Source of the DNA: Dictyostelium discoideum
Taxonomy: Eukaryota
Assembly: GCA_000004695.1 (NCBI GenBank)
Contig: CM000151.3
Span: forward strand, 6,464,001-6,528,000
DNA length: 64,000 bases
Direction of reading: 5' to 3'
Shown: positions 8,190 to 8,745 of the stretch, in pieces
Position numbering within the stretch: position 1 is the first letter of the stretch
Layout of the letters: every line of letters begins with the position of its first letter
Position numbers and translations under genes: made by a program
The notes under the pieces: model-generated
Database searches by the model: none
The model's input: the letters and a program-made list of their open reading frames with translations, nothing else
What the model was told of the DNA's origin: nothing

Positions 8190-8745
8190 TAAATTGGACC
8201 TATCAGTGGATAATTGAATTAATTATAATTAACTCAGCATATTTTAAAAAAGATCGAGTTATCCCGGAATAAATTCAGTTATTTCGAAAAAAGTTTATTT
8301 TTTTTTGAAAAATTTTTATTAAAACACATTATTTAATAAAAAATTTTTAAATAATATTAAAAAATATTTGTTAAGACCTATCGTAGAATTAAATTTGGTA
8401 GTATTTATAGAGAAATAAAGAAAATATAAAAAAAAAATGAAAATGGAAAAAAAAAAAAGGAACTTCCAAAAAAAAAAAAACTACATATAAAAAATAAATC
8501 CTTTATTTGAGCCCCGGTATTTTTGATTTTTTTTTGTCTATCATACTATTTTTTTATTTATTTATTTATTATATTTTTTATTTTAATTGTTAATAAATGA
8601 AAAAAATTAAAAAAAAAAAATAATATGGCCAATGAAAAATTTTTCGCGAAAAGATTTATTAACTCGATCTTTTTCAAAATAGCTTTTTTTGTTCAGAATT
8701 AATTCAATTATTCACAGAAAGGTCCAGTTTGGACAAAAAAGATGT
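8190..8745. mobile_element. non-autonomous TIR element (MITE-like, possibly thug-type) with inverted terminal repeats of about 100-120 bp
   Basis: 8198-8320 (ttggacctatcagtggataattgaattaatt...gatcgagttat...tttcgaaaaaag) is the reverse complement of 8635-8745 (...cgcgaaaag...aactcgatc...aattaattcaattattcacagaaaggtccagtttggac) at about 80% identity. Both ends terminate in GGACC. The ~300-bp core has no ORF. Confidence 0.4.

Follow-up and report, generated by a model that had tools for sequence, protein, structure and literature searches.

MITEs (miniature inverted-repeat transposable elements) of the Tourist-like or PIF/Harbinger kind create 3-bp target-site duplications (TSDs) and prefer the triplet TWA (TTA/TAA). 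In Dictyostelium discoideum, thug-S/T and DDT-A/B/S were reportedly described as DNA transposon families by Glockner and colleagues in 2001. Tdd-4 and Tdd-5 from this species are 3.8 kb long, with terminal inverted repeats (TIRs) of 260 and 297 bp and 5-bp TSDs (PMC2836005), and thug and DDT are listed as its other DNA-transposon families (PMC5633606). The retrotransposon TRE5-A integrates at a strict position and in a strict orientation relative to the tRNA gene (PMC5391098), and the untranslated regions (UTRs) of TRE elements have been published as short, without mention of an inverted-repeat insertion (PMC5006619). Here we analysed a 64-kb stretch of D. discoideum AX4 (contig CM000151.3, 6,464,001–6,528,000; 23.8% GC), and “the window” refers to this whole stretch. 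At positions 8196–8725 it contains an inverted-repeat unit that probably derives by decay from a MITE-type TIR element, small and non-autonomous, which may later have become a TRE5 passenger.

The window was compared with a total of 268 kb of dictyostelid DNA. Orthologous loci were retrieved with the flanking gene as anchor from a second D. discoideum assembly (L001), two isolates of D. cf. discoideum (L002 and L003), D. dimigraforme (L004), D. firmibasis (L005) and D. citrinum (L006). Reverse transcriptase (RT) proteins were found with the second open reading frame (ORF2) of a window retroelement, and a further D. cf. discoideum locus (L008) was reached via one of 1568 aa. L009 is a D. citrinum locus with a homologous TRE5-type element. 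Positions without a locus name are those of the window, in which the unit is composed as follows.

8196–8725 (+), 530 bp: inverted-repeat unit, MITE-like and without an ORF, with GGACC...GGTCC termini, collinear with the L008 copy (nhmmer E = 3e-142)
8196–8298 (+): left TIR (ungapped core 8196–8261), with subterminal AGTTATYYCGRAA-type repeats (arm profile positions 1–103, E = 7.5e-25)
8299–8634 (+): AT-rich non-coding core, 80.4% conserved relative to the D. cf. discoideum copy
8635–8725 (−): right TIR (ungapped core 8660–8725), with a 12-nt deletion (arm profile E = 4.3e-20)

The ungapped arms, 8191–8261 and 8660–8730, span 71 nt (72 alignment columns) at 82% identity. Their inverted-repeat score of 75 lies more than 15 standard deviations above that of 500 shuffles (22 ± 3.3, maximum 39). 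The outer edges are sharp, with similarity beyond 8191 and 8730 at the null level (score 14 vs 14.3), and similarity also drops abruptly inside 8261 and 8660. An inverted repeat reaching out to 8169/8753 was considered and proved not significant. When gaps are allowed, a profile built from four arms delimits 8196–8298 and 8635–8725, with matches at 76 of the 90 ungapped columns (84%), and the four-arm consensus opens with GGACCTTTCTGTGAATAATTGAATTAATTCTGAA. A preliminary description of this DNA had placed an element of ~550 bp at 8190–8745, with TIRs of ~100–120 bp. The inverted repeat it reported is real and far above shuffles, and its extent is corrected here to 530 bp at 8196–8725; the TIR length holds roughly for the gapped arms (91–103 nt, 84%) but not for the ungapped ones (71 nt). 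The same description took an arm identity below ~70% as the mark of a chance palindrome, whereas the arms are 82–84% alike. It was also right about an AT-rich core devoid of ORFs, as the longest ORF in the unit encodes 39 aa, a 34-aa ORF across the left arm is not kept in the right arm, and the GC content of the unit is 18.5%. The GGACC it noted at both ends is found at 8196–8200 and, as GGTCC, at 8721–8725, within the terminal motif GGACCTTTCTGTGAATAAT. Folded as single-stranded RNA, the unit is predicted to form one long hairpin (−109.8 kcal/mol, z = −6.8), because of the inverted repeat itself. A core motif, GTAGAATTAAATTTGGTA, was also compared with a tRNA-upstream motif in L003 and L006, but the match is at chance level.

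The L008 locus of D. cf. discoideum contains a 573-bp copy of the unit at 9313–9885, which is collinear throughout with window 8196–8725 and 80.6% identical to it (424/526). The alignment of window 8134–8804 with L008 9243–9941 extends over 732 columns (E = 1e-120). Identity between the two copies is 80.6% in the left arm, 80.4% in the core and 81.3% in the right arm, and this divergence matches that seen between D. discoideum and D. cf. discoideum in orthologous intergenic DNA that can be aligned (~81%). Even divergence of arms and core fits neutral decay. With arms and core drifted equally (~80–81% between species) and its own arms 82–84% alike, the AX4 copy is, to all appearances, now a fossil. 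In the L008 copy, the terminal 49 nt of the arms match at 45 positions, and the arms extend up to ~190 nt at 72%. GGACC and GGTCC termini are present in both copies, and the L008 copy, bounded there, shows them to be the true ends. The arms differ between species in one further respect: a right-arm sub-block of ~25–45 bp, AAAAAGATCGAGTTATCCCGRAATAAATT (window 8660–8683 vs L008 9810–9843), is oppositely oriented, repeating the left-arm block directly in L008 and in inverted form in AX4, a small flip within the TIR.

The L008 unit splits the second, partial copy of a 5′-UTR monomer of a TRE5-type retrotransposon. Its left junction reads ...TTTATTTGATTAT followed by GGACC and its right junction GGTCC followed by TATTTCATTTTTCAT..., whereas the uninterrupted first monomer of the same element reads ...TTTATTTGATTATTTCATTTTTCAT.... 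A TAT stands on either side of the unit, and in silico removal of 9313–9885 together with one TAT restores the empty monomer at 9073–9158 with 86 of 86 positions identical. The bases that adjoin the two TATs on the outside are not the same, which fixes the duplication at exactly 3 nt. The target string GATTATTTCATTTTTCAT has one uninterrupted occurrence in L008 and three in L009, which makes four empty monomer copies out of five; the three from the outgroup D. citrinum are all empty. These empty sites are paralogous or orthologous retroelement monomers and not the orthologous chromosomal site. Taken together, the TIRs, the 3-bp TAT duplication and the empty sites identify a discrete, TIR-bounded insertion of MITE-like character, and the footprint in the filled L008 monomer, next to empty ones, speaks against the unit being just a native component of the TRE5 5′ UTR.

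This comparison also disposes of the reading that the inverted repeat is a chance AT-rich palindrome, or consists of two independent retroelement fragments in opposite orientation. Retroelement fragments do pile up in this region, in DNA of 24% GC. However, the shuffle scores, the collinearity of the entire 530-bp unit, core included, with a copy in another species bounded by a 3-bp duplication, and the absence of the arms from every other TRE5 or TRE3 sequence in the 268 kb leave both versions effectively refuted.

The host element at L008 occupies 9071–15116 and is flanked by a perfect 14-bp TSD, TCATTACAATTGAG. It starts 47 bp upstream of tRNA-Arg (46 nt between), with its 5′ end toward the tRNA, and its 3′ end reads ...AAGCAACTAATAATTGCGTTATTCCATTC-A8. 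The D. citrinum element at L009 (9434–14966) likewise starts 47 bp upstream of its tRNA gene, tRNA-Pro (46 nt between), with the 5′ end toward the tRNA, and has a 12-bp TSD. With an ORF1, an RT-bearing ORF2 matching RVT_1 and an A-tail, both are TRE5-type elements, and as carriers among the TRE5-A/B/C group they are canonical. The 5′ UTR of the L008 element is built from a ~190-bp monomer, here called X (9073–9263), followed by the first part of a second copy, amounting to 1.5 copies. The 5′ UTR of the L009 element (9434–9914) comprises 2.5 tandem monomers of ~197 bp, in which all three target-string copies are uninterrupted. These tandem 5′-UTR monomers of ~191–197 bp (L008 9073–9941, L009 9434–9914) may correspond to the “A-module” of TRE5-A. 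Mouse L1 also has tandem promoter monomers in its 5′ UTR, and the arrangement at L008, a class II-like unit within the monomer-built 5′ UTR of a non-long-terminal-repeat (non-LTR) element, is akin to nested or chimeric transposons; co-amplification of the nested unit by retrotransposition is only proposed here.

The main alternative explanation of these data is that the unit is a native hairpin module of the 5′ UTR of one TRE5 lineage, spread by retrotransposition alone, with the empty sites representing precise losses. Such losses would occur when reverse transcriptase or a replication fork skips the hairpin between the short basal TAT repeats, and the stability of the predicted RNA hairpin makes skipping at the stem base mechanistically plausible. 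Both known copies are TRE5-associated, ORF-less TRE5 derivatives with many internal deletions exist at L003 and in the window, and the flanks of the filled and empty L008 monomers are 100% identical, an identity compatible with recent loss and with monomer homogenisation alike. We consider this explanation unlikely all the same. The empty state of four monomers in five, and of three in three in D. citrinum, argues that empty is ancestral, and an exact 3-bp duplication together with TIRs is the standard footprint of an insertion. Furthermore, the AX4 unit has no monomer-X flanks and hence no fixed position, arms and core show neither differential conservation nor a compensatory pattern, and a prior insertion event would be needed even so. 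Given the empty outgroup monomers and the different context of the AX4 copy, a native module is less parsimonious than insertion of a TIR element.

The context of the AX4 copy was analysed between the A-run to its left and the tRNA gene to its right, where the following features were identified.

8138–8195 (no strand assigned): left flank, an A24 run followed by 34 nt of AT-rich sequence, with no significant TRE5 match (P = 0.24–0.73)
8726–8810 (+): right flank, TRE5-derived, with an A26 run at its end, homologous to L003 8388–8465 (score 92 vs null 16; 49/51 identical)
8811–8851 (+): TRE5-type 3′ terminus AAGTAACTAATAATTGCGTTTTCCGATTC with an A11 tail, aligning with the 3′ ends of the TSD-delimited L008 and L009 elements and of L007 and L003
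8852–8920 (+): second TRE5-type 3′-UTR fragment, internally deleted, with an A9 tail (3′-terminal motif 8892–8920), placed by TRE5 3′-end alignment
9009–9086 (+): tRNA-Ser(UGA), a Pol III gene with retroelement debris gathered around it, 283 bp past the right end of the unit, kept in six of six orthologous loci

The window thus contains the TRE5 3′-terminal motif twice. Homology of the right flank to L003 begins precisely where the right arm ends on its outer side, and shares 5 nt (AGTTT) with the inverted repeat. L003 shares with this region only window 8726–8822 (88%; 49 of the first 51 nt) and 8811–8850, both of them inverted relative to synteny. The sequence at L003 8150–8597 is an ORF-less TRE5 derivative, canonically oriented upstream of tRNA-Ser. 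Over its first 50 nt this derivative matches the pre-ATG part of the L008 5′ UTR (P = 0.007), and over its last 130 nt it matches TRE5 3′ UTRs (L008 14992–15116 vs L003 8450–8582, E = 3e-22). The AX4 right flank (8726–8785) is unrelated to monomer X of L008 and strongly homologous to an internal segment of this L003 derivative. As the AX4 flank is of the L003 type and unlike the monomer-X flank in L008, there are at least two sequence contexts for the unit.

Three other interpretations of these flanks were rejected. Segment 8726–8810 is not the poly(A) 3′ tail of a retroelement, since its L003 homology runs past A26 and the segment is internal in the L003 element. Nor is it ORF1 coding sequence, in view of in-frame stops in L003 and a lack of protein similarity to the ORF1s of L008 and L009. 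The A24 and A26 runs were also considered as brackets of a TRE5-A C-module, for which the left part shows no supporting homology.

The preliminary description had already proposed a non-autonomous DNA transposon, and the collinear L008 copy, the 3-bp TAT duplication and the four empty sites support that proposal; the TSD it anticipated just outside the GGACC termini was not found at the AX4 copy, so the support comes from the other species. The bases flanking the AX4 unit are ATT (left) and AGT (right), and no direct repeat there exceeds chance, direct repeats of at least 6 nt being present in 71% of random placements. TTGGAC, the sole GC-containing candidate for a TSD, was rejected because it forces the inverted repeat out of register (1 of 12 terminal matches). 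From the window data alone, the MITE reading of the unit would stay undecided.

Several further observations weigh, together with the missing AX4 duplication, against a MITE-like element that became a TRE5 passenger. A 3-nt direct repeat has a chance of ~4% in DNA of this composition. The family has two members in the 268 kb, the AX4 copy (with its L001 allele) and the L008 copy, both of which lie inside or adjoin TRE5-type sequence, and no copy was seen outside a transposable-element context in this DNA. The L008 copy was found by retrieving a TRE5 locus, which biases its ascertainment toward such a setting. None of the fetched loci contains a transposase gene, and there is no known partner element. 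The left flank of the AX4 copy showed nothing significant when compared with the TRE5 5′ end (monomer X and the L003 body) or with all TRE5 sequence at hand. Finally, the TRE5-type 3′ ends in the window point at tRNA-Ser(+), opposite to the strict TRE5 orientation and unlike the canonical carriers, so that simple arrival as a passenger at tRNA-Ser is no more than a possibility. A local inversion, for example between the A24 run (8138–8161) and a T12 run (8941–8952), is conceivable and may have produced these wrong-way ends.

Some of the same observations would agree with transposition of the AX4 copy on its own, as DNA, into the region upstream of the tRNA gene, which could reflect that the family prefers TRE5 or tRNA-upstream DNA. 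In favour are a left flank without TRE5 likeness, a setting in AX4 unlike that in L008, and the footprint at L008, from which the family is seen to be capable of inserting as a discrete unit. Against this stand the lack of a TSD at the AX4 copy and the exact meeting of its right end with TRE5-derived sequence through the AGTTT overlap. In addition, its arms are merely 82–84% alike, yet the surrounding 1.2-kb block is absent from L002. We regard independent transposition of this copy as improbable.

Under the favoured explanation, the original insertion would have been carried out by a trans-acting cut-and-paste transposase that recognised the termini and made a 3-bp staggered cut, and the AGTTATYYCGRAA-type direct and inverted motifs in the arms could be putative binding sites for it. 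After capture in a TRE5 lineage, the unit may, with less certainty, have spread by TRE5 retrotransposition, and the AX4 copy could similarly have been brought to its locus by an ORF-less TRE5 derivative, as a passenger, without itself targeting the tRNA gene. Such a history would account for the association with TRE5, for the presence of the unit in a block that L002 lacks and for the poor arm identity (82–84%) of a seemingly lineage-specific arrival. The unit may accordingly be described as a fossil member of a small TIR family that may travel as a TRE5 passenger. The stronger proposal, in which an active non-LTR retrotransposon that targets tRNA genes caught a class II-type TIR element in its 5′ UTR and retrotransposed it as a passenger across D. 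discoideum and the sister species, is put forward only tentatively.

The proximity of the unit to tRNA-Ser follows from its position among TRE5 debris, since TRE5 targets tRNA genes. The preliminary description had put the element 265 bp upstream of a tRNA-Ser-like gene; the gene is tRNA-Ser(UGA) and the distance is 283 bp. It had also regarded a DNA transposon near a tRNA gene as unexpected. This supposed oddity is resolved by the TRE5-derived sequence that the unit adjoins and by the position of its sole known relative inside a TRE5-type element, so that a DNA-transposon-like element beside a tRNA gene is explained without any new targeting mechanism. If the passenger model is true, the locus would represent a clean case in which a class I element has amplified a class II relic, and TRE5 transcripts would contain a built-in source of double-stranded RNA, a hairpin with arms of ~70–190 nt that could feed the RNA interference pathways policing TRE5. 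If it is false, the locus is ordinary transposon debris, a piece of Dictyostelium junk DNA.

In comparison with described families, the unit is most like a MITE, that is, a non-autonomous class II TIR element. It shares with MITEs a length of 530–573 bp, the lack of an ORF, an AT-rich core, imperfect TIRs of ~100 nt, subterminal repeats and G-rich GGACC termini, as well as an exact 3-bp duplication with matching empty sites at one copy (L008, not AX4). It differs in that only two copies have been seen in the 268 kb, both tied to a retrotransposon. In footprint it comes closest to PIF/Harbinger MITEs as commonly defined, which the 3-bp length of the duplication and the G-rich termini call to mind, whereas the triplet is TAT and not TWA, with a single informative copy on which to judge. 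Tdd-4 and Tdd-5 (Ginger2/TDD) share with the unit the host and the TIR-bounded structure of a DNA element. Compared by description, however, they are set apart by the 3-bp duplication of the unit and by its TIRs of ~100 nt in the window and up to ~190 nt in L008; the 5-bp TSDs and 260–297-bp TIRs of these elements disfavour both as relatives, of which Tdd-4 had been suggested. thug-S is multicopy, yields small RNAs and is described with an intron, which implies a gene; the unit contains no ORF, and this comparison too is by description only. The small TIR-element family may already be catalogued under another name. Diagnostic strings of the unit gave one irrelevant match and no relevant paper in the searchable literature. 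Its precise ends, 3-bp footprint and two-species consensus can now be used to annotate further copies and to seek the transposase.

Within the dictyostelid sequences, the arms are not present in any TRE5 or TRE3 sequence of the 268 kb other than those described above. A second copy of the arms within the window was not detected beyond low-complexity A/T matches, and pattern scans of metagenome and prokaryote genome contigs gave, as expected, no match to the unit. BLAST with relaxed scoring against the loci returned AT-rich noise only and was discarded.

The long and stable predicted hairpin raises the alternative that the locus is a functional hairpin-RNA gene, generating small RNAs, and not a transposon relic. 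Small RNAs do arise in Dictyostelium from the repetitive element thug-S (PMC4894637, PMC6161686). However, Rfam contains no family matching the unit, none of the Dictyostelium microRNAs printed in the literature maps to it at up to three mismatches, and none of the small RNAs printed in the thug-S paper maps to it either. The arms also decay as fast as the loop, without compensatory changes. A hairpin-RNA gene at this locus would therefore be very improbable.

The orthologous loci place the unit in a rapidly changing interval. Exon 5384–6784(−) is 100% identical to the AX4 “ZZ-type zinc finger-containing protein”; exact-protein look-ups of the window ORFs (a 466-aa exon and the TRE3 ORF1 and ORF2) matched no record. 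In L001 the unit is identical to that of AX4, with one difference in 1511 bp (7500–9010), outside the unit. The gene and tRNA-Ser are conserved across the other species and the space between them differs in each, measuring 1769 bp in D. discoideum, 591 bp in L002 and 1.7–4.5 kb in the others; the arms are absent from the orthologous loci L002–L006. The region is thus a landing zone for insertions. Given the 591-bp spacing in L002, the AX4 block may be lineage-specific inserted material, with a deletion in L002 as the other possibility. When the intergenic regions of AX4 and L002 were aligned globally with MAFFT, the tRNA came out misplaced, and only the conserved promoter-proximal part of the alignment was used.

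The two D. cf. discoideum isolates also differ from each other, with 591 bp (L002) and 1980 bp (L003) between the ZZ-finger gene and tRNA-Ser, the longer interval holding the TRE5 derivative at L003 8150–8597. This presence/absence polymorphism points to recent TRE5 activity in D. cf. discoideum. In D. firmibasis, L005 8306–9005, upstream of tRNA-Ser, contains two copies of a ~200-bp repeat with tRNA-like sequence on the opposite strand that was not called by ARAGORN; the repeat may be an element resembling a tRNA-derived short interspersed nuclear element, or a pseudogene.

Other features surround the unit in the window. Upstream of it lie two tandem units of ~114 bp (7728–7815 and 7842–7929) that are 80% identical and have no match in the other loci or in Rfam. 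Between the TRE5 fragments and tRNA-Ser, 8925–8980 shares with L002 9411–9500 (the 90 bp upstream of tRNA-Ser) the arrangement AAAA(T)CAG(A)T...T-run...GGATTGG...AAAA(T)CAG(A)T, which resembles a TSD around a tiny insert; its conservation between D. discoideum and D. cf. discoideum indicates an old feature of the region. Retroelement sequence appears to take up a large part of the DNA lying between tRNA-Ser and tRNA-Leu(CAA) (9250–12060 not covered). A TRE3-type retrotransposon with an ORF1 of 417 aa and an ORF2 of 1234 aa is found at 12064–17864(−), downstream of tRNA-Leu(CAA) (see also 18159–18239), and the C-terminus of its ORF2 is duplicated at 12064–12471. On the near side, a long poly(T) tract starts ~80 bp downstream of tRNA-Ser (9165–9245), and the sequence GGTTCGATTAATC at 9118–9130, ~35 bp downstream of the same gene, resembles the external B box of Dictyostelium tRNA genes.

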